Below, one piece after another: positions 8,090 to 57,936 of a DNA stretch of 64,000 nt (positions within the stretch are counted from its first letter, which is position 1; every line of letters begins with the position of its first letter). The DNA is taken from assembly GCA_037379345.1 (NCBI GenBank), contig CM074522.1:31744001-31808000 (forward strand), in the 5' to 3' direction. The notes under the pieces were generated by a model. The model was not told where the DNA came from. It ran no database searches and was given only the letters and a program-made list of their open reading frames with translations. The position numbers and the translations under genes were made by a program. Source of the stretch: Perna viridis (lineage: Eukaryota).

Positions 8090-8395
8090 ATATGTCCAAT
8101 GTGTTTTAGTTTTCCTTTCCTGTTTCGTCTACCCCGGGCTTAACTTTTTATGAGCAACTCGGAGGTTGTTTCTAGAAAAACAGAGGACGCTTCCCCTGCC
8201 GGTGCACCTGGACCATGCTCCCAGTTTTTAGTGGAGTCCGAGTTGCTCATTTACTTTTGTTACTTAGTACTTTAATTTTGGTTATTTTATGTTTTTTGTT
8301 GTGTGTGTGTGTTTATCTGTTTACCATATCTGGTTTTTGTACCGGGATTACATTCTCGTGATTTCCTTTAGAATCTTGTTTCCCTTGATTATTCT
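8090..8395 (+). repeat. Naiad-type complete 3' UTR copy
   Basis: Full match from the RT stop region to CCCTTGATTATTCT. Contains a perfect 14-bp inverted repeat 8150-8163/8237-8250. Confidence 0.85.
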
Positions 8396-8994
8396 TTGAA
8401 AAAATAAACAAACTAAACAAGACAAACAAAACTGTTTGTTATATATGTATGACATTTGAATTTCGTTGCTGATATCATATTCCTGAAGATGACGTGGCTA
8501 CATGTTGAGTTACATGTACATGCAATTTGCGTTTACCGTTAACGTTTAACATCTCTAATAAGAGTAAGTACCAAAAATAAGTATGCTGCATATTATTAGT
8601 ATGAACAAGTTCTGAAAGAGTCAAATCCATTCGTAAAAATGATAGTTTCGGATGGCGTGTCACTTGTACAGTATGCATATTTACTCGAGTCGACTTTTCC
8701 TACCGGTCAAGTTAGAAATAATACACCCAGTCGAGCCCAACCGCCTGTAGGACTTGATTCGTCAATTAGGTATCTTGACGACTTGGCTGTCCCGGTGTCG
8801 GTGTTCACATACATCAAGGTTAAGAAATAGGGAATCCACTAATCATCACAAATGCATCCCGCAATTATAGGCTGACATTCTGCACGAGTCACATTCATTT
8901 TATTGATATTTAATCTATTTCATTTTTTTTTATTTTAGTGTTCAATTTCGTCAATCATTACTTATATTTGGTCAAACACTATAACGATATTACA

Positions 8995-21242: not shown

Positions 21243-21744
21243 GTTTTGTTTGTTTGTTGGGGTTAACGTCCGAGCAGTAATATTTCAGCTATATTCAGAC
21301 GATGAACATGAAATTGATGATAAAATGAACATGAAATGATGATAAAATGAAAAAGGGATCGGACACAAGGACAATGTGGTCGACAAATTTTGACTGCCAC
21401 TGAAAATAGGGAGAGGTGGGTAGGGTCGGGCAATTTAGTCTCCTGTGGCGGAGCCCTATGGTTCCTACTCCGGGAGAATACCCCAGTAGGGTTTTTAACG
21501 TGCGAGGAACGTGGCATCTTTCGCAACACGATGCACCACTATGGTTTGCGGTCAGGTTTTCCGTATTATAGCCTGACAACCCCAGCATGTAACACGCCAG
21601 GGATACCCCATACCACATCCCAGTTGCTCTGTGGGCAGAGCGCCCTAGCCCCCGACTAAGGTTCTGAGCACTATTTAGTCGCCTTTTACGACAAGCTTAG
21701 CGCCGCTGCAGGCCTATTCTTTTAACACCCGGACCTGCACGGGC
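21243..21744 (-). mobile_element. SINE-like non-autonomous retroelement with a structured non-tRNA head (copy 1)
   Basis: About 500 bp, colinear with 33964-34495 in opposite orientation. Head CCCGTGCAGGTCCGGG...GCTTGTCGTAAAAGGCGACTAAA, core GCACGTTAAA.ACCC (MetaSINE-like), tail TATAGCTGAAATATT.CTG...CGTTAA + (CAAA)n. Confidence 0.8.
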
Positions 21745-23545: not shown

Positions 23546-26500
23546 ATGGACACAGAAACCTTTGACGTCATAATTGTAGGTGGCGGCATTATAGGGACAT
23601 ACACAGCTTACCGACTTATACTTGAAAACCGAAAAGTTCTTTTGATAGATCAGGTATTTATCAATTATGGACTTTACAACACAAGACGGGTATGTGACGT
23701 GTATTTTATATACACACATAAATATGATCATGACTAGTTATAATTTTTGCTAAGAATCAGGTTAAAAATAAAAATAGACTAACAAACTTTCAAATGGTAC
23801 ATTTACACATGTTACGTTCCAATATTATTGTATTGATATTGATATTTGCAATAATTGCGTGTCTGTCTATAAAAACAAGATGGGAAATTTTTATTAGAAA
23901 AAATACAAATTGACAGAAAGAAATTATTACAGTGAGATGCATCGTATGTTTAAATTTTAAATAAATAATGCATTGTTTAACCAAAGACATGTTTAAATTC
24001 AGGTCGCCTCTGTAAATTATATTTTGCAGTCGAAAAATGAATTTACCTTGACAGATTGAGATTTATTTTACTATCCTGAGTTTTCCAGAGACCAGGATTT
24101 CTAGAAAACAAAAGCAAACAAGACTGTGAATCTGTAATGACTCTGAGACTATATCATACTCCACGCCACATACTTTATGTGCCTCTCCCAAGCCCGGAAC
24201 CTGTAGTCCAGTGGGTGTTGGTCTTTATTATGAATTTCAGGTTTTTTTTTCTATAGATTATGTCGATTTTAGTCTTTTATAAGTTGTTTCTTTTCCTTCA
24301 TCTTGGGGGCTTTGATAGCTTGTTTAATGGTATGCACATAACTGAAGAACATGTGGTGACTTGTAAAAAATAAATTGCTTGGCTTTTGGCGGATGACTGT
24401 CTCATTGGCCTTCTATTTTTACATAAATTATATGATAAAACGTGATATTAAATAACTGTAAAATATTGATACAGTCAAACCTGTCAAAATAAAACCTCTG
24501 TAATTTTTAATGCTTTGTTCGCATTCAGCATGTGTTCAATTTTCACAAGATCAAATATTTTAAGTACAGTTCTGACAAAAAACCAGACAAAGGCATACAA
24601 TAGATTATTCTGGATTTCTTAATCCCAATCCTTCTGTAGGCCACATAGAAACTGTATAGGAGATATATAAGTGCAAATAAAAGTAGGCCACTGGAAAAAT
24701 CAAAACTTAAAATTTGGTAATTTTCTACTACAGAAAAAGTACGGGAAAATTTACAGCCAGATTTGTTTTACACTATAACTAGTGAAATAATAGGAGATCC
24801 CTAATATTTGTAACTGGAAATCCATCAGTAGGCCTCATAGAAACAGTATTCAAAAACAAAAGTAAAATGAAAATTACCCACTGGAGATATCACCACTTAC
24901 ATTTTACTTATGTTCTAATGCAGAAATTAAAATACAGGAAAACTTCTCTTCTGAATTTTTACACTATAACCAGTCAAAGATATTTCACGATAAGTAGCAG
25001 ATCCAACATAAACATAGGGAGGGTTGTTTGTAAGAACTAACAAAGGCATTTATAAAGTTACATTGATTTTCTTAATAGATGATGAATCCCCCCGTGCCTC
25101 GTATTGAGGCAAGAACCATACTTGAGAACTATTCTGTTTAATAATCAAGCAAAATATGTATAAGGTGAGGCAGATTAAGAAACAACACATTTGTATGGTC
25201 TTATGCAAGTATTTATACTTCATGACCTTCTGAAACAACCATCAAAGTGATTGTAAAGTTTACCTTTTTAAGATATTGATAGGTCAAATTCAGTTCAAAT
25301 GAACTATGAAAAAAAAATGTTAGAACATTTTCAAGCATTATTTCCCTTTACAAGAAATCAAACATATCTATGATATAGATGCTTCATGATAAATTGAAAT
25401 AGTTTTTAGTTGTTTTCTAGATGAGGCAAAAAAGACCAAATTAAGAAAAAAATGACGTGCCAACCATTGTCTAATGTTTTACTCAGATGGTACTTTTGAG
25501 TTGTATGTAGGGACTTTGTCTTTTCCTATATGTTTCCTGTTTCCTATATATCAGGAGCGTTCGTTTATTTTTGTACTTTGTTTATTTTATTGATTTAACT
25601 GTTATTTTATATATTTTTTTGCTATTATTAATTTTTATAATTTCACTAATTTTATTTTCTATTTTTTCTGTCCTGATTATATATCAATATGATTATTTTT
25701 CGTCGTTCATCTATCGTGCGTTTAAACGCACAATATGAGCGTTTGTCTATCTTGCGTTTAAGCGCACGCTAGGAGCGTTCGTTTATTGTGCGTTTAAACG
25801 CACGATAGGATCGTTTGTTTAAACGCACGATAGAAGAGTTTGTTTATCGTGTATTTGGTAAGCGTTTAGCGTGCGTTTGGTTATCTTGCGTGCGGGAAAC
25901 CTAAACGTCTCAAGGAGTGTAAAAAGCTTTGTGTTGTACTCGCTTTGTTTAATGTTTTCTTCAGTTTTCTTGTTCGAATGGGAGCTCTAGTGGCCGAAGC
26001 CGAGGTGTACAAAGATCAACATTGTTAGATCCTTCAGATTGCTTGGAAAAGATGATAATTTTTTCGCTCATGCAATGGAATGACCTTGATGAAAAGTATC
26101 CACAAAAGTTTATGAGGTAGTAAGGTTTTTGCTTAACTCGAATAAAACCATACACATAATCTTGTAATCATCTTAATTGGACTGCTTCTGCCAATCATAT
26201 GTCATTGTTTGTACTAAACACGCATGAGTAGTTACCTCCCTGATACAAATATTATCATATGTCATGTGTAATATACACTGAAACCACAAAATTTAATTTT
26301 TCCTTATATTTACTAGTATATATTTTACTATGTTATGAACAAAAAAGTTGATATTTTTGGGCAATATTCATACAAAATGCAACAGTATGAAAGGCGGAAG
26401 TCAAGGTGAGAGCGGCAACGTTAGGGAAACAAAACAAGAAACAACATATACTAATTTAATTCCACAGGGGTAACACGGTTTCTGATTGGTTAAAAAAATC

Positions 26501-29500
26501 GTTTATCAACTCATAGACTATTCAGGATTTGATTTTTGGTTTATACAGGTTTTATGGTATATAATTCGAGATTCATTTAGCAGTTCATTTAGAGAAGGTA
26601 AAATAATAACTGCGCTAATATTATACATTTCAATTTTTAGACCGACGAACTTGCTTTATGTCGGAAGAAAAGATGAGTCATTTGTGAAACAAGCGAATCA
26701 AGAGGACCCAGATGATGAGAAAAGAAACAGAGGAGACAATTTTAAACTATTCAGTAGGAGTGACATTCGTGAACATTATCCAGACCTAAACATTCCGGAA
26801 GATTACGTCGGTTTGCTAGACGCAGACTCCAAAACGTTATTTGCCGACGATATAATTAAACATCTAATGGTATTTGTTTCCTTTTATTTATGAATAATCA
26901 AAAGTGATGTTCAATTTTAAGTGCCTGATTCTTACAGGGACTGCCATTTAAAAGTGGAAACTTGCTTTCTATATATAGTATCAAATTGATACTGGGAAGA
27001 TATTGTAAGCAAAGAAGGATCTGAAAACTTCCTAACGATGTTAGAACTGTCAAATTTGCGAAGCAAAATTTTTGGTCGTTCCCTTCGCGGGACTCAAACT
27101 CGCACCGCTCTGACATCTATGGCAACACCGCCTGCATAGATTAATCTAGGTCTGTAACTTAGTACACGATGTATGGTAGTACGGGACAGTTCATCTAGAA
27201 GTTCTGATTTTTGTGGTTTTGGGAACTTGAATTTTATACACTTAATTAAGTGTCAGTCTTTGTCAGAATCTGGCAGAGTCTGTGAAACATAGTATGAAAA
27301 AAAACGTCATTATGATATTGTAGTTTTACTATTTGCACGATCAGAATCATAGAAAAAGAAAACAAATCATATCATGTTGGTGCATTGTGTTATAATTTCA
27401 TTCAAATGCATTGAAAATGCATATTTTAAGGGCAGATAACTTCAAAAACCTCATTTGTTTTTCTAGTATTCTTTTGAAAATTTCTGAACGAATCTAGTGA
27501 TGCAGATCAAATAATGGTTTTTTTTTCCAAATAAAAGAAGCATTCTTGAATGAAATCATATTTTCAGATCGATGGAGTTTTGATATGCTTGTTTCTGATT
27601 TTTCCCATTTTTTCTTGAACTTTAGTCAATCTCAGTGACATTAATGACAATTTTATTTCTTGTCGTTTTTCTTTTCTAAAAGATCAGGTTCGATCCGATT
27701 AAGCTCTATATTCCTAATTATAAAACATTCATTGCTTTGTGTAATTGTTTGATTTAGTGTGATTTTTTTCTCTGGGTAGGATGAGTTTTTAAGAAGTGGC
27801 GGAAAACGTGTGACAACAAAAGTGGAAAATATCATATCATGCGGGAATGTTACAGTTCATACTGCCATGGGCGTACTCCACTCAAAGAAGGTTTTACTTG
27901 CAACAGGGCCATGGTCAAATGACTTTTTAACTGCATTAGGACTTTCTGTTCAGATTAAGGTATGTGGTTAAACAATTGTGGCCAAACAATGCTGTCAGAA
28001 TTCGTTTTTGATATTTTAATTTCTTCAAAGTTTGAAATAATCTTTTTTTTTTCAGATTACGATTAATCTTCATGGTTTATTTTCTTAAAACATATCAATT
28101 CATCTCTGAAGAACGAAATTTTTGATACATCAAATTTTCTCATTTTATACATCAGTCATATAACTAAATTAGAGTTTAACACTTTAAGATGTTAAGTAGT
28201 AGTCTTTGTAAGAATCATGCAAATTCTGTAAAATGTGATACATCTAAAAAAAAAAAAAAGGCTACATATTTTTATTTTTGTAATTAAGTTGCTTTATAGA
28301 TCTATATGATGAAATATATAATCATTTATTCCAATCTGTCTGCTTTTAGGAGATAATCCACATTGAAAATACAACAGTTTCTATTGTATTTAACTGTCAT
28401 TTACAGAGTTATCTCCATTAGTTATGAATTCTACAGTACATTCTATATAATATTTATCTCCTGAGAGCATATACTATGTTTACTATAACAATTTAAACAA
28501 AATATCAAGAATAAAAATATGTAGGCTTTCCAAACATGAATCATATTTTGCATGATTCTTAGGTGGAGTGCTACTGAACTCTTTAAGATGTTAATTAAAA
28601 TAGTAGTGAAAGGAGAAAGCACAATTATATAACTAATAAATTGCAGGAAGTCGTAAAAAAAAAAGACAACTTAAAAATAAAATCAGTTAAAAAATAAAAT
28701 CAGTTCGACAAATGGTAATTTCAATAAAGGTGTTTATAGAAAAGCAGAGGACGCTTACCCTAACGGTGCACCTGGTCCATGCTCCCAGTTTTTAGTGGAG
28801 TCCGAGTTACTCATTTACTTTTGTTACTTTGTATGTATGATTTTAGTAACTTATGTTCTTTGTTGTGTATGTCTGTTTTCCATGTCTGGTCTTTGTCCCT
28901 GGAATACATTCTTTTGATTACCGCTATAACCTTGGTTCCCTTGATTACTCGGTCAACCATACTATTCATAATTTTCCAATGAAAACGGAAAACCAGGTTT
29001 TATATTGTGATATTCCTACTGCGTCCATTAGAACTGATTAGAATGATAAAATTGCAAAACAAACGGGAAAAAATTACAACCGGATAAAATTGGTTAAATT
29101 AGTATCAAAACAGTAATGTGTCAGTTTTTGTACTGTTTTTGTCGTTATTCGTAGAGTTTGATGTCAATCAAGCTGGAAGACAAACTTTTTAGTCTTTCCG
29201 AAAAATTGAGGATTATTGAAATTGTTTTCATTATATTTTTGACATCTTTTGTCGTTTGTCGCCGATTAGTGGATGATATTATTAAAAAAAATAATTTTTA
29301 TCTATTGTTTATTTTATAGACAAAACACATCAGACAAGTATATTATAAACTGAAGTCTCCTGATATTCCCACACAATTTCCGACCGTAGTTGAATATAGA
29401 AATGGTAAAGTTAATTGGTCGAATATTACTACAGAGTACGGGCCATGCTTAAAGGTTAGAATACACGTAATTTCTTTTAACTATATAAATGAACATTCTA

Positions 29501-32830: not shown

Positions 32831-33963
32831 TAACAACTCATTCGATTGCTAGAAATGATAACATTTGCATCGATTTCCTTTACAGACAAAATATACTTGG
32901 TAATGTTAATGTTTATTGTAGAATGATGTCTTCGTTCTGATAGTAATAAAGCCTCACTTCCCAATTTAGTGTTTGCAATAATCAGGCAAAATTGGAAATA
33001 AAATCAGAAACATGCATGTGAAAACCCCACCGATCTGACAATCAAATATCAATCAAGGACGTCTTTTTCTACTTGAAAAGACCATTATTTAATCACTGCA
33101 TCACTGGCTTTGCATAGAACTTTTTCAATAGAATCTTAGAAAAATGAGGTTTTTGACAGATCTGCCTTTGAAATGTTCATTTTTAGTGCATTTCAATGAT
33201 AATGTAACTCAATGATCCAGAGTGATATGGAAAAATTTGTCTGTCTACCTGATTCTGATGGTGCTAATAATTAAATTACACTATCAAAATTATGGTTTTT
33301 TCATACCATGTTGCACCTACTGCCTAATTCTTTCAGGAACTGACACTTTACCACTGACACTATGATAAACGACTTTAACCAAAAAAGATACGAATGTCCG
33401 TAAGCAACGCAGCGATTGCTTTTAACTGGGGAAAAATTATCGCTAGATAAGAGTGAAATGGATAAATAGCAATAGGAAAGTTGTCACAATCCATGAAGTT
33501 CAATTTTCAATGTTCTCGATGGAGTCTATATCTAAATGATGTTTCTCGTCACTTTTAAAGTGACTGCATAACTATTCTTAAACTGAAACTAATGTCTTGA
33601 AACTTGATTCATATTTCTAACCATTAAAGTATGGATATCGGTTCTAATCACTTGTACAATAGTCCTCATTTTCATGCTTAGTTAGAGTCTTTAAATCAAA
33701 AAGGATCTGCTTGACCATTACACGCATACATTGGATAAAATTTGTGCGTCTTTTGTATAATTATGAAGATTTCACATATGAAGTCGAAATAATTAAATGT
33801 TGTCAGTTACTGACAAAATGAGTGTTTATAAAAAAAATCACCCAATCGTTTAGAAAAGAAAGTAACACTTTTTTTCTAAAAAACAAATAAAAATAATGAA
33901 ATTAAAAAAAAATAAAATAAAATAAAGCATGTTGCATCTACTCTTGATAGCTTTTGTTTTTAA

Positions 33964-34495
33964 GCCCCTTGCAGGTCCGGTGTCAAAAGAATAGGCCTGC
34001 TGCAGCGCTAAGCTTGTGGTAAAAGGCGACTAAATAGTGCCCAGAAACCTAGCCGGGGCTAGGTGCTCTGCCCACAGAGCAACTGGGTTGGGTGCCCCAG
34101 ATGGTGGAATGGGGTACCCCTAGCGTATTATATGCTGGGGTTGTCAGGCTGTAATACGGAAAACCTTACCGCAAACCATAGTGGTGCACCGTGTTTGGAA
34201 AGATGCCACGTTCCTCGCACGTTAAAGAACCCTGCTGTGGTATTCGATAGGAGGTAGGAACCTTTGTGATCCGCCACAGGAGGCAAAATTGTCCGATCTT
34301 ACCCATCCCCCCTTTTTCTAGTGGCAATCTAAATATGTCGACCCTATTGCCCTTTTGTCCTATCCCTTTTTCATTTCATTTTATCATTATTATCATCATT
34401 AATGTTCATTTTACCATCAATTTCATGTTCATCGCCTGAATATAGCTGAAATATTGCTGTTCGGGCGTTAAACCCCAAAAATTAATCAATCAATT
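33964..34495 (+). mobile_element. SINE-like non-autonomous retroelement with a structured non-tRNA head (copy 2)
   Basis: Same family as 21243-21744, with a (CAAT)n tail. Flanked by an apparent 12-bp TSD TTTTGTTTTTAA (33952-33963) / TTTTGTTTCTAA (34497-34508). Confidence 0.82.
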
Positions 34496-35089
34496 ATTTT
34501 GTTTCTAAAGACTTGGATTGTCTCTTTTTTTTTCACAAAATGTAATGCTATATAGAACGCTTGTCGATGTTTAAGTTTATTTTAGTCATTACTTCGCATA
34601 TTTGTTCGATTTTTCGAAAAGTCGTAAGTGATAAATGATCGTAAGTGATAAAATAATCGTAAGTAATGACATAGCATTGAGTTCAATATAAAAATATATT
34701 TCTGTGTAAAAATACTGTTAAAAAAAACAAATATCTAGTTTTACAGGATAAAAATGTAAGAAAAGTATAAAATAGAAGATTTTGCATTGTGATGTAGCTC
34801 TTCGATTTCCCGGATGTAAACAATAAAATGCATATCGGTCTTCGGATTTCAATACGTTCTACATCGAAAATTCCGAAAGGGAAACTGAAACTAGAACGAG
34901 ACTTACAAACCCTATTATGAAGTCATAACTTACAACCAATTTCCATGTTAAGACTTTCGTGAAATGAATCTATAGATTTTATATTTCAACCAAATGAACG
35001 TAAATAGGACGTCTCTTCTGTTGCATATGTTGGGTATATTATCAAACCACCACAGTTTCGTATTATTTGGTGTATAGTATACGAAGTGA

Positions 35090-36753: not shown

Positions 36754-39700
36754 TCAAAATTTCTCAGTTGATGTGACAGTGGCTTTTGATGAAATTTTTT
36801 CTCGGATTCGATTTACAACCTTTTGGGATGATACATATGCGAGGGATACAAATAAACCCTGAAAACTGCAAAGTGTTATAAACATGAACTCGGTTACAAC
36901 GTCATTAAACAAACTTCCCAAAATACCGGAAATCCAAAACATACCAGTCACAACACTGATGCGAACATATACTGAAACAAATCGGAAAGAGTTTGATTTC
37001 CGGACCAGTCGAGTCTCCATAGACTGTCTCGTAATTACGACAGCGACAATTCCAAGACAGAGCATGTTTGTCAAAATAGACATGCCTATAGGTACAGACA
37101 CAAATATTATGTTTCCTGGAAAACCAGTTGGAAAACATACTTTGTTATTGTATTTAACTCTTACATTATAGAATTTGAACTTATCGAAAACAATACCTGG
37201 CACAACAAATATAAGTGGAAGAATTAAGCTGAGAATGTTTAGTTTTTGTTTTGTATGCGTTTTTTGACTAGTCATGTGTGCACTATTGTTCATCATTGTT
37301 CTAATCATATGAGTCATGTGTACCAGTGCCACGGACTTGAATGCAAAAACCAAAAGCCAAAAATAATGAAGACCTACACCTATACAGTAACACACTCTTT
37401 GATTATCAGTTGCACCAATACCAGCCATGAACAGAATATTTGATACAAATAGAGAAATGAACAAGCTTTGAACTATAGAACCAGGAATGGATGTGTACAT
37501 GTTGGTGACTCTATACACTGCAATGGAAACGCCAAGAGCCACGACAGAGACTGACATTCCGGTATATGTCAGAACAATCTTAACTGTACTAAGAACAGAC
37601 CTAGACTTTTCAATACCTGCAAATTTTAAACATTTTACAGAATCTATTGTTAAGTTCGTGTCAAATGATTCACCTAATAGAGAACATTCGAGTTGTTGTT
37701 GTTGACATCTAAAGTTCTGCAATGTCGTCGACCCTAGTTTCGGTATGATTCCTTTGTCAACCATGTGATAGGAAAATGGAAAAATTTCATTTTTCCATTT
37801 TAGATCTTCAGCGTAAATAATAGGATTATCTTCAAAGTTATTGATTTCAAAAATTAATTTGTTCAACTTTCTTATACGAACAATCCATTTCAAGTTTGAT
37901 AAACGTTGTGCCAATGATTTCATTTCCGTCATCTCCAATAACACTGTTATTTTTCCTCTTATACTAATTCTGAGATTAAACTGGGTGTTGTCGACAGTCC
38001 AGGTCTTATACAAACTAATTTTATCAACAGACTCAATTTGTATAAAATCTGACAAGGAATATGCAAGTAAAATAGCAATGGTTTCACCAACGTCAAGGGT
38101 TATCGGTTTGTTTAGGTAAAAGTTGTATTGTTCTGTAAACTGATAACCAGTTATAAGAGGCGTGTTCTGGCATTTTCCTGAAATCTATAAAAAGAAACAT
38201 TCTTTTAAAAAAATATTCATATAAAATTGCAAGGTGATACGGTAAACCTATATACAGCTCTGAATCTATACTTCCCATTTACACGATATACCATCACCCA
38301 TTGTTCCAATCCCCATTACCCATTGAGAACTTCCCACTCTCATCAAAAAATCCCTTCTCTACAAAATCTCCATTGCATATTTCGTATAAAATATGTACAT
38401 TATCTGATTTGATTTAATATATTTTATAGAATTTAACATTAAAAGTGTTACACTGTGAATGTACTATTGTTCGTGGGGTACCAATTTTCATGGTTTCCAT
38501 CAGAGGCCAAATCACAAAATTTGCATTGATATGTATACTGAAAACCTCAAACCAAGAACTTGTTTTTCTTACCTAATCCACGAAAAATGGTACCCACGAA
38601 TTAAAGTATTTTCAAGGAATTTATTTAAATGTAATACATTTTTTACATCAATAAATACTAAAAAAACTGATTTCCGCAGGTCTCTCATTTAGAATTCACA
38701 TTATTCATGAAACTGTCCCCACCCCATCACCATTCCAAATCACCTCATACACCGTAGAATTGGAATTTTTTTCCTATACATGTACTATATCTTGTGGTAC
38801 CAGTTTAAACTTGTCACAATATATAAACGAATATAGGGTGTGCAGCAGATGACAATGCCTCAATTTGTTTTTCTTTATAGAATTATTATAAAAAACAAAA
38901 GATGTTCCATGGATATGAATCAGCATGATTTTTCAACTCTTTATACTTCTTTTCCCCATACTCAGTTCCCGACTCAACATTATACATCGTTGTTACAAAA
39001 AGACCGTATACCTTGATACAAATATGTAGTTCTTGGTAGAGATTCCTCATGCTTTGTAAATTCCAAATCATCTTCCAAATATATCGAATAAGTTTTCAAA
39101 ATGTTGGAATTTTTATCAACAACATAATTGACTATTGTGGTAGATACATTTTTCAACAAACGGTTGGCATTCCAATGGAAACAAATTGTGTACCTCTGCT
39201 TGTTTATCTAATCCTTCCCTTTTATGTATGTATAGATGACGTTGTTTCTCAAACAAAGATGGTACACCTAGATATAATTATTTAGTTCTTGGTAGAGATT
39301 CCTCATACTTTGTAAAAAATAATTCCAAAACATCTTCCAAATATTCATCAGAAGATGTTTTCAAAATGGTGGAATTTTTAATCGACAACATAATTGTCCA
39401 GTGTGGCGGACATGTTTTTCAACAAACGGTCTGTATTCCAGTGGGAACAAAATGTGCTCCTCTACTTGCTGACTTTTCCTACACTCTTATGAGGTTGACT
39501 TGATCTGATCCGATAGAAAGAACATGGTGTGGCTAGATCCTTTAATCTCAGTTTCCGCTATATAGATGACGTACTATCGTTAAACAATCCTAGTTTCGGG
39601 ACTTGCTACATCGCATCCACCCAAAATAACTTGAGATAAAGAATACTACATACAATGCGAAGTCAGTCTCTTATCTTGACCTACACTTAGAGATCAATGG

Positions 39701-42700
39701 TAAAGGAATACTATTGACCAAACTTTACGACAAACGTGATGACTTTTCATTCAGAATAGTCAACTTTCCTTTCATCTGTGGCAACATCCCTTCAACACCT
39801 GCGTATGGAGTTTTCCTATCACAACTTTTACATTATGCCAGAGCTTGCCGTAACTACGCAGACTTTTTGTATAGCGCTAGGACTCTTACAGTTGGGATTC
39901 TGGGACAGGGTTATGTTGCTACAAGATAGAAGTCATCAAAACATAATTTGAATTTTTATAAGCAATTCGGCGGGTGTAGAAAAGCAGAGGACGCTTACCC
40001 TACCGGTGCACTTGGTCCATGCTTCCATTTGTTAGTGGGGTCCGAGTTGCTCGTTTGCTTTTGTTACTTTGTATGTATTATTTTTGTTACCTAATATTCT
40101 TTTGTTGTGCATGTCTATTTTCCATGTCTGGTTTTTGTCCATGGATTATTTCTTTTGATTTCCACTAGAACCTTGGTTCCCTTGATTACTCTTTCAGGTG
40201 GTAACGAAGAGTATTACTGCAAACATGACATGTTTTATATGTTAAGTTTGGAATGAAGGGTACAACTGCAAGCATGGCATCTCATGTGTTCAGTTTGGAA
40301 TGAAATGTTCTACTGGAAACAAGACATATATTATATGTTCACTTTGGTACGAAGATTTTTACTGTAAACATCACCTCTTTTATAATTATGTTCCCTTTGG
40401 AACGAAGGATTAATATTAGGTTCCCATTATCGTGCGATTAGTTACGATTGCCATAATTGTTAAATCGTAACTGATCGTGAATCCATTTGGAATTGCATGT
40501 TTGTGTACGATGCGTTGCGAGTTGATACATTCTGATGCAACACTTTCACAATTTTCAAATTTTGAGTACCACGACCAGTAAAGACACACGTTTTGTTTCG
40601 ACAGAATAATATCAGATGCGATTGTCCCGATTAAGATCACGATATGATCACAATCTGATACGAAAATTGAGATCGATGTTCAATATTGCATACAATCTGG
40701 AAAGAAAGGATACGTTAACATACATTAAAAAGGATTATATACGTTATGTTGCGTTAAAGAGTAATCAAGAGAGAACCAAGGTAATAGCGGTAATCAAAAG
40801 AATGTAATCCAGGGACAAAGACCAGACATGGGAAACAGACATACACAACAAAGAACATAAAGTAACTAAAATCATACATACAAAGTAACAAAAGCAAATG
40901 AGCAACTCGGACTCCACAAAAAACTGGGAGCATGAACCAGGTGCACCGGTAAGTTAAGCGTCCTTTTCTTTTCTAGAAACACCCGACGAGTTGCTTATAA
41001 AAAGGCAAGTCCGGGGTAGTCGAAAGACGAAAGAAAAACTATGACACCTAGAACAAATCAGTTTTCATATCGCAGATGGATACACCGTATTGATCCCCGA
41101 GTTCATGATGACGAGCATTAAATTTTTGTAGTGATGACTTCAATCTTGTAGCAACATAACCCTGTTCGAGAAGCCTATTTGATAGAATTCTAGCGCGATA
41201 CAAAAAGTCTGCGTAGTTTCGGCAAGCTCTGGCAAGATACGATTAAAGTTGGTAAATCTTTTAAGATTAGATGAAAAATTATCATGACTCACCACGACTT
41301 GATCCCGATTGATGTCTATATATAAAGCCTAGCTACTAGTATTCCTATGTATTTTTCATTACTGTACATATTTGTGCAGAGTGCACATCATAGAAAATAG
41401 AATACCTATACTCTAAATTTATGAGAATGTGACATTTACCATTTTTATGTATGCATACGTAAAATGAAGTAGAAAAAAAAACGAAGCAAAGAACAGTGCG
41501 ATCAGATACAACGCCGAGTCCAAAGAACAAGGAGAGCCGCATTCTTGCGATCTTGGGTTCGGCCATAGATAACAGACGGACGGAGACAGCAATTTGGTCA
41601 TTTTTTTCTTGTCTACAACTTTCACATTTAAGGTTTAATAATCCATTGGCATTCCAAAACTACATAAGATTGCCCAAAAGCTCTTTGATTAAGTGCTATA
41701 AAAATAACTCCAGCTATAGGAAGGACGTGAACAAACTTCAGAAGTCATATTTCGCCCTCAGACATGTTGTCGCTGGAAAGATCTATAAGTAGCTGTCGTA
41801 TGATTTCAGGTGAGTGTGTTGTCTTGTAATTTCGAGAATAGTTTAGAAGTTTGTCAAACCATCGTAGGAGCTTAAAAATAAGTGTTCAGCCTACCTGTGA
41901 CAAGCGAAGCCTGGCGAGAATTAGCCAATCATATCAAGTATAAATGGAACGTTCCACACGCAACTGGAACCCTTGATGATAAATAAATTGCGAACAATAT
42001 CTTTTTTTCCATACCACTTCTAGCATTAGTAGATGCTGATTATAAATTTGTCTTGATGATGCTATGAAGTAAATGTCATATGTCAGACGCTCAGATTTTT
42101 AATGTCTCTGAGCTGTTCAGCGGTCTAGAAGATTAATACACAGGTCTTCCGCCACTTCGTCCGTAGAGACAAGCCCTGATGACAATATTGATATGACTTT
42201 TTTATCCTAGTGGTTGATGTTTTCGTCTTAAGGAACTACCTGACGAAACCATATAGCAGGAGATGCAAGTCTTGGGAGGAAAATTTCGAGGGGCAGGAGA
42301 GTGGTCGAAATTTTGCTTACTCGCTTATAAATTCCGGTGTCTTCTTATGACCCTAGAGCGGAAACCAAAAACGGTTAAAGATATTGTTAAGGCGACAACA
42401 GTTCATTATAATATACTGCAAATTAAGACATTCAGGTATTACAGCACAAGAAGAAGATCATGAAGATGAAAACCACAATGTAATCCGTAGGGCAGGGAGA
42501 GGGATAAAAAAAATTAGAACTTATCCCGCCACGACTCCTCTCTGTTGTTCATATCTCCATATCTACTCAATTTGTCTTTTTTTTTCTTTTTGAGACGTCC
42601 GATTACAGTTCTCATGTTGGCATTCCATGCTTTCAGTTGTTCTGCTGTGGTATTCACCTTTGTGGCCTGTGCAGCCTAACGAACATCCTTCTCTGAAACT

Positions 42701-45272
42701 CGCAGGGCGTTGACTGTATATAATCTCGTTTTGAGGCAGAATCTCTAATTCTTCTTTTTCACCCAGGTCATCCACCTCTTCTACCGTAAGCGTCCCTTCC
42801 GACATTGTCTCAGGGTCAGCTGCAACCACAGCGAATCTTTTCCTGTCTTTAACTTTGGGTGGCATATTAGGAAAAAGCCATATTTGATCAATTAATGCTG
42901 AGTTCAAAATGAAATTCGTTGAGTAGTAAATAATTTAGATCTAGTCTGATTTTATATAGAATTTGCAACTGGTCGTAAATGCACGTGACAAATCGTGAGT
43001 ATTCTTGTCTTATCGAATTTATCGTATCCAATCGAAACTGATCGTATCGAATCGTTTCTTATTGCTTGTCAGTCGTGTCAGATCGTGAACATTAGGATAC
43101 GATGAATCGAAACAGCTCGTATCTGATCGTAAGTAATCGTACATCGCAGCGAATCGTGTATTTTTTTTTTGGCCAAAGACTGATCCCGATCAATTACGAT
43201 GCGACAGTACGTTTAGATGCAATATATTGCGAGGTGTTGCGACCCCATACGATTTAATACGTTAACCATGATTGAAAATTCAATCGTGTTGCTGGAAGGA
43301 CAATTTTTCACAGTCAAACATTGTTCCATGATCACCACGATTGCCACGATTGGCGTCAAGATCTTTTACGATGTTATGCACTCACCACAATCGGTCCACA
43401 CCGTGACGCCAATGAGACTTTTTAAATTACTAATTTGTTCTAAACAATATGGATATAAACAATTTTTTAATTTAGTCAAATGTCAACACGAACATTTACG
43501 GTTTAATCTCTACAAACGAAAGCATAAAATCAATACCTGCCCAAAAAAAAGCTGCAATATTATATTCATGCAAAATTGTTAAACGTGTATAATATAAATG
43601 GATATTCATTAAATTCTAGTGTTTCTAGAAAAGCAGAGGACGCTTAACCTACCGTTACACCTGGTCTATGCTCCCAGTTTTTAGTGGAGTCCGAGTTAAT
43701 CATTTACTTTTGTTACTTTGTATGTTTTATTTTAGTTACTTTATGTTCTTTGTTGTGTATGTCTGTTTTCCATGTCTGGTCTTTGTCCCTGGATTACATT
43801 CTTTTGATTACCCTTATAACCTTGGTTCCCTTAATTTCTCCATCTAAACAGGCATTATTGTTTAACATGTAGAAACAAATTTAAAGGTTCCTGTAATTAA
43901 CAAGCAAATGTACCAATGAGAGTATGATATGAACGGTGAATGCAAATACCTTTGTTACACCTGCATGAAAAGATGACTTCTCGTTCGGTTTTATCTGGCA
44001 AATATGAAAGATAGTACACGTTTACATGGTACAAAAGGTAGATTTTCCATTTATGTTAAATATTTGTTAATTTTGTGATATAAGTTTCAAATCATTGCAT
44101 ATACATCTATGAGACTGTGTATGCAAAACACAGATCTACGCTTAATATATGTAGAGGATTTATTTGGAGGAAAATAAATATTGAATATTAGAATATTGCA
44201 GTATACACATTTGTGATGTGTGAATGAATAACAGCTAAATTATAATTACCTGCGCATGCCCTTCACATTGTCTTTCATTGTCGAAGGAAAAGATAACAGA
44301 CATTGGGTATAAATCAAAATCTTTAATGGCAACTAGGTGATATCCCAAAGGATCAAAACACTTCTTATACTGGTTGTTAGGATTGCAAAATACATTTCTG
44401 TCAAAACTCTGTTTTCCAGAAAGAATTTGTATTGCACTGATGGAATTGTTGTTGCACTTGTCTGCATTTTCAGAGTTTGGGAGCTGGTAAATTAAACATC
44501 TTCTAATAGAAACATTTGCTGACGGAACCATTTCTATGCGTGCTTTAGCGCTATTGTTTATCACATTAATGAAAGATATTTCATCTGTTATTCTATAGAA
44601 TTTTTCAGAATTTATATTAGAAACATTAATTGCAAATTGTGTAAACGTATCAATGCCATTACATTTTGCACAAAATTTGTTCTGATATATGACATTTTCC
44701 TTACTTATTACCCATGGACCCGTTGAAATGACATTTGTTGATTTGCACAAATAATAGATTTCAGATGAATTGTTGTGAAATGGACATTTCCGGACAATGA
44801 AATATCCGTATATCTGTTCAGAAGGTGTTTTGGGCGATACGCACTCATAAGGTCCGTTAACATCAATGGATGTGACATTCGCGTCAAAGCAGCAGTCATT
44901 GTATTTAAAGCACACATCATCACAATTACAATATCTGAAATTTTCCCCTATCATTGATTGATAGTTACATGAGCCATAATGATTACAGATGTCAGACCAG
45001 AAATGCCCGTCGTTAGATATTTTTGTTGTTTGCTCAGATTCTGTTATACTTCCCCACTTCTCCGTTTGGTGTTCTTTAGGTTTGTTGGGTGTCACTGTCG
45101 ACTGGATGAGAGGAAATATATTTTTGTCCTTTAAATGATGGTTCGGTTTATCCATAGTATCATGCTGAAATTGTGTGGTATAAAATTCCTTCATCTTTGA
45201 ACTCTGTTGTTGAATACATGATGATATCAACAGCATTAAATAGACTATTGCTATTCTCTTTTTATTTTCCAT
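36754..45272 (-). CDS. Class B-like (adhesion/Methuselah-like) 7TM GPCR with somatomedin-B-like Cys-rich ectodomain, 817 aa
   Basis: Exon 1, 45272-44250: signal peptide MENKKRIAIVYLMLLISSC, CNCDDVCFKYNDCC, IVRKCP, YQNKFCAKCNG; donor GTAATT. Exon 2, 38184-36754: acceptor TTTTATAG, phase 0 (...GHAQ|ISGKCQ...), seven hydrophobic helices with CYCIGVGLHYFWL and SFQGLFVSLAY (7tm_2-type). An acceptor about 10 nt before the ATG (45283-45284) suggests a 5' UTR exon further upstream. Confidence 0.88.
38450..38615. mobile_element. Short MITE (related copy at about 57715-57887)
   Basis: TTCGTGGGGTACCAATTTTC ... GAAAAATGGTACCCACGAA inverted ends; both copies share the internal CATTGATATGTATACTGAAAAC. Confidence 0.6.
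38950..40195 (+). mobile_element. Naiad-type Penelope-like RT remnant plus 3' UTR in the GPCR intron (two tandem segments)
   Basis: [66 protein letters not shown]. The segment TAGTTCTTGGTAGAGATTCCTCAT occurs at about 39028 and again at about 39283. Ends ...CCCTTGATTACTCT. Confidence 0.85.
40757..41235 (-). repeat. Naiad-type 3' fragment nested inside the Harbinger element
   Basis: Reverse complement of the RT C-terminus plus the full 3' UTR; it interrupts the CGAT-rich left arm of the Harbinger element. Confidence 0.9.
41460..42500 (+). pseudogene. Harbinger (HARBI1-like) DDE transposase pseudogene
   Basis: AFQNYIRLP; ALRHVVAG...LSYDFR; WNVPHATGTLDDK; FSIPLLALVDADYKF; MSDAQIFNVSEL; VDVFVLRNYLTKPYSRR; SRGRRVVEN. 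Many stops and frameshifts. Confidence 0.85.
42580..42866 (-). pseudogene. MADF/Myb-SANT-like DNA-binding protein remnant of the Harbinger element
   Basis: MPPKVK...QNEIIYSQR, then after a frameshift KDVR*AAQATKVNTTAEQLKAWNANMRTVIGRLKKKK, which fits the MADF helix pattern. Confidence 0.65.
43619..43840 (+). repeat. Naiad-type 3' UTR copy
   Basis: Near-identical to the 28729 copy. Confidence 0.88.
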
Positions 45273-57100: not shown

Positions 57101-57311
57101 CGAGCTTCAAATGTAAATATCAAGGTACACATTGATCCGTTTTATGGTTAAGATTTTTCAAAAATTTTTGTCTACTTCCATTTGAATAAAATCATGTTAA
57201 TGATACCTGTCGTTAACTCCATTCCGAGATTGCTAAGAAACATTTCCTAGTCTTTAGCAGCATGGTTGGCAGAATGCTTCTGCCCTTACTTGGTTCCATC
57301 TTGAAAAAAAG

Positions 57312-57525
57312 AGAAAAGCAGAGGACGCTTACCCTACCGGTGCACCTGGTCCATGCTCCCAGTTTTTAGTGGAGTCCAAGTTGCTCATTTGCTTTTGTTA
57401 CTTTATATGTATGAATTTAGTTACTTATGTTTTTTGTTTGTATGTCTGTTTTCCATGTCTGGTCTTTGTCCCTGGATTACATTCTTTTGATTACTGCTAT
57501 AACCTTTGTTCCCTTGATTACACTT
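57312..57525 (+). repeat. Naiad-type 3' UTR copy
   Basis: Near-identical to the 28729 copy. Confidence 0.88.
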
Positions 57526-57936
57526 TCTATTGAACTACCTTAAGTACTATACAACTGAGAAAAAAAAGATTTGTGTTGTCGAACTACAGGCAGACAGATC
57601 AATGTCAAATTGATATAAGTTCGAAACATGAGACCATACAAGTTTAAGCAACACCAATAGTTCCATGTACTAGATACAAAATGTGTAACTGAATTAAAAG
57701 AATTAACAACTAGGTTAAGTATTAAATTTTGTGGTATTCATGGGTAAGCCAAACCACTAAATTTGGTTCTAAATAAATAGGAGATTCCCATTGATATGTA
57801 TACTGAAAACTTCAAAACCACGATACCAAGAATTCACCGTACTTGTGTATCTTCCCTGATCCATGAATAAAAGTACTTTCACAGTATATAATAACATACA
57901 TATGCTCGTATGCTGAAATCTATTGATTATTGCATA

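Follow-up and report, generated by a model that had tools for sequence, protein, structure and literature searches.

The 5′ head of a SINE family in Perna viridis is, as comparison of sequences indicates, a conserved RNA fold composed of a short stem (P1), a 7-bp H-type pseudoknot, the word AGAAUA, a second stem (P2) and an invariant hairpin (P3). One DNA virus carries the same fold in sense orientation, as do the 3′ UTRs of five RNA-virus contigs that differ in their Pfam make-up. We assign a probability of roughly 0.4 to the reading that the head acts as a 5′-to-3′ exonuclease block resembling the coremin xrRNAs, which would trim read-through RNA to the element's first base. The promoter role suggested for this head in 2016 has stayed a guess, and the precise 5′ ends of elements with neither a tRNA head nor a known ribozyme have lacked an explanation; a covarying fold in common with RNA-virus 3′ UTRs moves the question of the 5′ end to the level of RNA.

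The 64-kb stretch of DNA that was analysed (the window) contains exactly two copies of the SINE. The plus-strand copy (33964–34496) consists of an LP head, a body with a partial Nin-like domain, a Nimb-type tail and a (CAAT/CAAA)n end, and the minus-strand copy occupies 21243–21744. Both are delimited by an alignment of the two copies and by blastn, in which positions 33964–34488 match the family copy L002 at 87.8% and positions 21743–21247 match at 87.1%. The family is about 520 nt long, non-coding, dispersed and of high copy number: a 22-mer from the SINE has 7,203 exact matches in the 723-Mb genome (3,531 plus, 3,672 minus; control, 0), a first look yielded 2,373 head candidates (40 of them scored), and a variant with an AAGAG loop matched 134 times.

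A sequence-only reading that preceded this work had stated that both copies start exactly at the pseudoknot, which is correct in the window and extends to the family. Among 70 distinct head copies (loci L001–L060), 65 could be anchored; in these the commonest base accounts for at most 54% of copies at upstream positions and for 75–95% from G+1 onward, and a few copies (L036, L042 and L056 among them) start one base later by eye. The 5′ ends are therefore homogeneous, heterogeneity being one of the observations that reading had named as speaking against its proposal. A tail was in range for 46 of the 65 anchored copies, which thus count as full-length; 35 of the 46 have TSDs of variable length, mostly abutting +1, whereas controls with swapped flanks gave 91 of 2,070. 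The TSD of the plus copy is 12 nt long (33952–33963), its 3′ counterpart at 34497–34508 differing by one mismatch.

Neither window copy contains A or B boxes (judged by a simple box pattern), as had been noted from the letters, ARAGORN reports no tRNA in any of seven SINE loci (0/7), and Rfam returns no tRNA match; a tRNA-headed SINE (SINE2) was ruled out on these grounds. The head has instead been in print since 2016, as the LP (‘LINE promoter’) head of Matetovici 2016 (PMC4758252), so that the term ‘undescribed’, previously applied to it, does not stand. The accessible text of that paper reports that the first ∼70 bp of LP-SINEs match Nimb-17_LMi, I-3_DR and RTE-9_CPB, guesses at a promoter, draws a parallel with the promoter-plus-ribozyme of ingi/L1Tc, and names Sgl_LP, Lsa_2 and the pectinoid MESC SINEs among mollusc LP-SINEs (PMC4758252). 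Our family agrees with these descriptions in its LINE-derived head of ∼70 nt, absence of a tRNA, TSDs, simple-repeat end, and partial Nin-like body, as in Sgl_LP; it differs from the published account, as far as the accessible text goes, in that the latter gives no structure (‘pseudoknot’ occurs 0 times), proposes a promoter and includes no viral copies (PMC4758252). The same hairpin word is contained in the accessible supplement rows for a scallop SINE and Pan_3 (PMC4758252), as well as in metagenome repeats, bearing out the earlier suggestion that the motif occurs in repeats of other invertebrates; in the scallop head, both P1 and the pseudoknot can be traced by eye. The LP assignment rests on this word and layout and on the LINE L223 (below), rather than on alignment to Nimb-17_LMi itself.

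Downstream of the head, the plus copy contains a partial Nin-DC-like domain (34217–34290) with a 12-nt and a 9-nt word in common with Lottia_Nin by eye, spaced by about 53 nt in the SINE vs. 50 nt in the Lottia_Nin row of the accessible supplement (PMC4758252). The Nimb-type 3′ tail (34440–34496) is a two-stem hairpin with a simple-repeat end, (CAAA/CAAT)n repeats terminating members of the family. Its similarity to the tail of L223 was reached by none of 2,000 shuffles, and its weaker similarity to the tail of the genome's own Nimb-like family by 8 of 2,000; all three tails are predicted to fold as the same two-stem hairpin. By its sequence, the element is a SINE and an LP-SINE, and represents a new LP-SINE family of ∼520 nt with its own body.

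The head is about 78 nt long, the 5′ end of the element lying two bases before P1. In the minus copy (21668–21744, minus strand) the fold is intact: the copy starts at 21744, P1 pairs CCCG with CGGG (21743–21740 with 21731–21728), the pseudoknot pairs 21738–21732 with 21714–21708, and P3 spans 21692–21678. In the plus copy (33964–34040) P1 and P3 are mutated. Its pseudoknot (33971–34000) pairs GCAGGTC (33971–33977) with GGCCTGC (33994–34000), bridged by AGAATA (33988–33993); P2, internal loop and P3 occupy 34004–34040, P2 pairing 34004–34010 with 34035–34040 (GCGCTA at 34005–34010 with TAGTGC at 34035–34040) and P3 extending over 34016–34030, followed by TAAA. The pairings and coordinates proposed earlier for the pseudoknot, AGAATA and P2 agree with the letters of both copies, as does the remark that the first stem of the plus copy is mutated (a T at 33969 and the loss of one G).

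Three further proposals stood in part. The hairpin GTCGT-AAAAG-GCGAC, said to be present in both copies, is intact in the minus copy, and the plus copy reads GTGGT (34018). The pseudoknot, proposed as 8 bp, has seven conserved pairs; since in all 12 aligned distant examples the loop opens with a U whose opposite base varies, the eighth pair is specific to the SINE family. The hairpins CCTAGC/GCTAGG and TGCTCTG/CAGAGCA (34047–34081) are present downstream, but are likewise family-specific and outside the common motif, other carriers diverging after P2. The pseudoknot loop is variable (8–9 nt), with a one-base L1. Single-copy folding energies, computed by a method without pseudoknots, were not significant (z −0.97 and −1.39). 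Rfam at E≤1 gave no match to the head motif in window, viral or metagenome loci, its models being able to miss divergent members; together with ARAGORN this agrees with the expectation that no known ribozyme or tRNA model would match.

A structured, LINE-derived 5′ module in place of a tRNA head had been suggested from the sequence, and the LINE L223 supports it. L223 is an intact I/Nimb-like LINE with an ORF2 encoding endonuclease, RT and RNase H and an ORF1 zinc-knuckle match below cut-off (E 0.012); it starts with an LP head, about 350 nt before ORF1, in which the knot is partly decayed. Because L223 carries the same head and the same tail, both ends of the SINE appear to be Nimb-related. 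L220 and L223 (G001:C4, about 518900–525050) come from a scaffold filed under the genome of a bacterial symbiont, and are probably host DNA in the assembly. In the Perna viridis genome no autonomous LINE with an LP head was found, the loci examined (5 of 5 in one search, 30 of 49 variant-pattern loci in a second) being mutated SINE copies.

The best ORF2 relatives in the Perna viridis genome carry another head. A related Nimb-like LINE shows 64% identity over 400 aa of ORF2, and the young Nimb-like family of this genome is 6.08 kb long, with copies 98–99% identical and many with an open 1,247-aa ORF2. From its first base, the head of this family fits a nested, HDV-like double pseudoknot (L238:1686–1760 and L235:1804–1880, both plus), a descriptor match reached by 2 of 100 shuffles. 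HDV-like ribozymes usually have a first G and spare Gs for P1.1; the young Nimb-like head lacks both, and has no Rfam match. Because a related Nimb-like LINE bears an HDV-like topology in place of the LP head, comparison of these elements suggests that related LINEs swap knotted 5′ modules.

Strong evidence that the fold is maintained as pairing comes from comparison of distant carriers. A metagenome scan returned at least 122 stretches, mostly invertebrate-type repeat heads. In a test anchored on AGAATA and the hairpin alone, the first member of each cluster had to show at least 6 knot pairs enclosed in a stem of 3 pairs or more. Among the matches listed, 13 of 24 clusters passed; of the controls, cross-family swaps passed in 114 of 552 cases and shuffles in 119 of 1,200. 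At the level of instances, again among the matches listed, 101 of 183 passed the knot test, the others being decayed, truncated or without P1 (one cluster, 0 of 12). A P2 of at least 4 bp is present in 11 of 16 families, while swapping produced one in 58 of 240 cases. In one metagenome cluster (L090, L104, L116, L142, L147 and L176 among its loci) AGAATA, P2 and P3 are kept while P1 and the knot are lost; these copies are preceded by (GTAA)n-like repeats and probably represent an internal or fused head copy.

The head is nearly absent from prokaryotes, with five matches in 596 Gb of genomes, one of which is L223 itself; two of the remaining four lie near contig starts and two in AT-rich contigs of a symbiont bin, positions and composition from which we infer eukaryotic carry-over. 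No head-motif match was found in the phage collection.

Viral contigs were scanned with the hairpin pattern alone, which matched nine stretches. Seven of the nine (six distinct) have the whole layout; the other two (L065 and L069) have the hairpin without AGAATA and the knot. Four of the RNA-virus-like contigs encode, respectively, a peptidase-A21 capsid (L062), RdRP_4 (L064), RdRP_3 with a nodavirus-type capsid (L066) and RdRP_3 (L068), and the fifth (L061), with no Pfam match, is RNA-virus-like by layout alone. AGAATA lies 25–119 nt past the last stop in all five, and 27–119 nt separate the motif from the contig ends; the last 60 nt of L061 hold a second, tandem pseudoknot with compensatory letters of its own, cut off by the contig end. 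In the DNA virus, a 212,482-bp contig, the motif (L063:2954–3030) lies between two same-strand genes, separated by about 140 nt from the preceding stop and by about 150 nt from the long ORF that follows.

The six distinct viral pseudoknots pair at 41 of 42 positions, the true pairing being the best of 720 permutations, with strands that are pairwise identical at 2–6 of 7 letters. An alignment of 12 distant examples (A3), comprising six viral rows and six non-viral rows picked after inspection, gives a knot that is 97.6% paired, with two-sided change in all seven pairs and a covariation of 0.606 vs. 0.186 when shuffled. Compensatory changes across families, the absence of which had been named as evidence against the proposed fold, are thus found. 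For 16 non-viral rows with decayed copies included (A2), the corresponding values are 82.1% paired and a covariation of 0.291 vs. 0.125. RNA viruses have no DNA stage, and the G-U pairs fit the sense strand; for these reasons, selection on the head probably acts at the RNA level.

P3, by contrast with the covarying knot, is invariant in sequence across all examples. New viral scans in which either the P3 stem (14 stretches) or the loop (32 stretches) was freed yielded no new clear example with other letters, so that the invariance does not appear to be solely an artefact of the search pattern. All remaining matches, L074, L077, L210 and L213 among them, lack the fold and were treated as chance, with two exceptions. 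L315 passes the knot threshold without an AARAG loop and was likewise counted as chance. L313, with one loop change and a partial knot, is a degenerate candidate at the 3′ end of a viral contig of 4,371 nt, 14 nt short of its terminus.

Where the element begins appears to be set by the fold. In three families (this SINE, metagenome A and metagenome B, the boundary of the last resting on 7 anchored of 15 copies), the 5′ boundary lies 6 nt before the loop U, while the distance from this U to P3 is 47, 48 and about 60 nt. Because the first distance is fixed and the second varies, the element end seems to follow the knot and P1 rather than the invariant sequence. The first base is a purine in all three SINE families (G 75%, A 78%, G 86%), which is expected of a transcription start and would suit an internal Pol II promoter to which the RNA fold had been added as a second function, as in the 77-nt element of L1Tc. 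The promoter itself is the published LP hypothesis, proposed from position (PMC4758252, section 10), and a short C-rich start word common to retroelement heads also agrees with it. We nonetheless regard it as improbable: covariation and presence in RNA-only viruses cannot arise from a DNA function, a DNA-only promoter being insufficient because the fold pairs with differing sequences in those viruses, and families differ by about 13 nt in how far the invariant sequence lies from +1.

Transcript data came from one raw standard RNA-seq run, of a type poorly suited to 5′ ends, with 3,420 reads on a near-consensus copy. At least 462 reads extend into upstream flanks, vs. a depth of 549 at +5, so that most signal is read-through, and in this run neither a start pile-up at +1 nor a trimmed RNA is visible, the former speaking against a promoter. 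The two strands are represented by 356 and 193 reads at +5 and by 671 and 365 at +45, an excess of about 1.8 to 1 that would represent the sense strand in a library of the usual kind, and which the promoter hypothesis would accommodate. These counts are slight evidence against large amounts of trimmed or cleaved RNA in that library.

Reads that cross the 5′ edge, with a strand ratio equal at the edge and inside, also weigh against a self-cleaving ribozyme of a new class, which would excise the element from read-through transcripts at +1. Precedents exist in R2, L1Tc, RTE and baggins (PMC6765202), the parallel with ingi/L1Tc was drawn in the LP-SINE paper (PMC4758252), and linear RNA viruses do carry ribozymes (PMC13725137), mostly, according to the accessible text, before ORFs or as tandem pairs. 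The invariant junction bases (loop U, AGAAUA, UAA) resemble a catalytic core, and the HDV-like topology of the related Nimb-like LINE suggests exchangeable 5′-processing modules. A cut at the 5′ edge, however, would detach the 3′ ends of the viral genomes, and all five RNA-virus contigs run uninterrupted across it; the base at the would-be site is T, C, T, A, C and A in the six viruses; and there is neither an Rfam match nor, among seven LP heads, a match to an HDV-like descriptor. We therefore consider cleavage quite improbable.

Known ribozymes were set aside individually. HDV-like ribozymes share with the SINE head a pseudoknotted RNA at the 5′ end of non-LTR elements, common to differing elements (R2, L1Tc/ingi, RTE, baggins; PMC6765202, PMC11371274), and their fold is said to resist exonucleases (PMC11371274, accessible text); the SINE head differs in being a single H-type knot with a separate hairpin domain rather than a nested double pseudoknot. 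A loose descriptor of HDV-like features (P1-P2-P3-L3-P1′-P4-J4/2-P2′) matches 0 of 7 LP heads, yet matches the Nimb-like head of the genome. Pistol, twister, twister-sister, hatchet, hammerhead and hairpin ribozymes gave no Rfam match (E≤1), and their cores are absent from the motif.

We favour an exonuclease block because a single function must suit both the 5′ end of a retroposon and the 3′ UTR of a virus; of the earlier ribozyme-or-promoter suggestion, the structured 5′ module stands, and neither function is the best fit given the 3′ UTR position. The folded head would stall Xrn1/Xrn2 at the 5′ edge of the element; host read-through or intron RNA would be cut back to the first base and then protected; and the trimmed RNA would serve as template for the Nimb-type LINE protein via the common tail. 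xrRNAs yield short 3′ subgenomic RNAs, and the head would do so in viruses. This reading is supported by the covariation of the knot, by the sense 3′ UTR position in 5 of 5 RNA-virus contigs and the tandem copy in L061, by a 5′ end that follows P1 with a base at that site that varies in viruses, by the near-absence from prokaryotes, and by a layout that parallels coremin (small pseudoknot, one-base L1, downstream hairpin). Two xrRNA-type features are present: a pseudoknot at the 5′ edge of the putative retained RNA, and the viral 3′ UTR position, in which xrRNAs are mostly found, coremin in tandem (PMC10321173, PMC6546385).

Membership in either of two described classes was rejected. Coremin xrRNAs of BNYVV and cucumoviruses (PMC6546385, PMC10321173) resemble the head in their compact 5′ hairpin with a pseudoknot-like loop contact, one-base L1, A-containing conserved spacer, downstream hairpin, 3′ UTR location, tandem copies and presence in unrelated virus families. 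Coremin, however, as described in the accessible text, depends on a YGAD tetraloop together with a conserved spacer of 10 nt, and its second hairpin is variable, whereas the SINE head has a variable 8–9 nt loop, seven canonical, freely covarying knot pairs and an invariant downstream hairpin. Class 3 xrRNAs (ST9a, dianthovirus, polerovirus; PMC12397905) likewise have a long pseudoknot (as many as 9 bp in ST9a) between loop and 3′ sequence where the retained RNA begins, and form a ring round the 5′ end; the SINE head lacks their P1/P2 coaxial stem-loop with T-loop (L2B), has an extra P2/P3 domain and finds no Rfam match.

Several observations weigh against the exonuclease block. The knot alone proves nothing, by analogy with the plain H-type frameshift pseudoknots of BWYV, MMTV, IBV and SRV-1, which fail to stall Xrn1 whether or not a hairpin is added (PMC10321173, PMC6546385, accessible text). 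For the head to do so, extra contacts would be required, made by the loop U, by AGAAUA lying in the P1 groove and by P2/P3. The protected viral piece would be short, given the distances to contig ends; the purine first base is that of a transcription start; a mechanical block does not account for a fully invariant P3; the closest Nimb-like family of the genome has an HDV-like topology in the equivalent position, which would favour an analogy with cleavage; no autonomous LINE with the head was found in Perna viridis (30 of 49 loci examined); and no trimmed RNA was seen in the single run, of a standard type ill-suited to 5′ ends.

The invariance of P3 and AGAAUA across animals and viruses is what a conserved host-factor site would show, and raises the alternative of a protein- or ribosome-binding module, either a cap-independent translation enhancer or an RNP-loading element, which would aid translation of uncapped viral or LINE RNA and bring SINE RNA to the LINE protein, the 5′ end being set otherwise. 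3′ translation enhancers typically sit just after the last stop, as the head does in viruses. Retrotransposon 5′ ribozymes are, moreover, thought to be IRES-like (PMC6765202, accessible text). Such a module leaves the exact element end at P1 unexplained, and its retention by a non-coding SINE would be hard to explain; we judge it unlikely, if credible.

Beyond the exonuclease block itself, we tentatively propose that the head may define a novel kind of RNA that blocks exonucleases (or processes itself) and has moved between the 5′ ends of LINEs and SINEs and the 3′ UTRs of RNA viruses that are not related to one another. Host Xrn enzymes would then carve retroposon RNA from read-through transcripts, halting at its first base, and no promoter would be required. 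An Xrn1 stall would make this a new xrRNA class and, within the searches made, the first used by a retrotransposon; cleavage would make it a new ribozyme class. Either way, a small RNA module would have been exchanged between animal retroposons and viruses, and the thousands of head copies could affect the decay of host RNAs bearing them.

In the literature searched, LP-SINEs are named in PMC4758252 alone, and the letters of the head motif were not found. Nor were the fold, its covariation or its presence in viruses found in print; Repbase, Dfam, subscription journals, and Figure 3 and supplement file 1 of PMC4758252 lay outside this scope, and an earlier structural description is possible. 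The accessible text of PMC5786205 is confined to RTE and Vingi as sources of the LINE 5′ parts found in SINEs, and that of PMC11481361 describes tRNA-headed bivalve SINEs and does not contain the head motif.

Elsewhere in the window, another dispersed repeat family with many copies occurs on both strands (for example at 8167–8400, 28731–28955, 39971–40196, 43620–43845 and 57305–57528). A long, near-perfect hairpin at 25712–25807, with weak miRNA-type Rfam matches below gathering score, is probably a small inverted-repeat element. A 476-codon open frame on the minus strand (36754–38184), some 2.2 kb away from the plus copy, encodes a secretin-family 7TM domain (E 8e-13).
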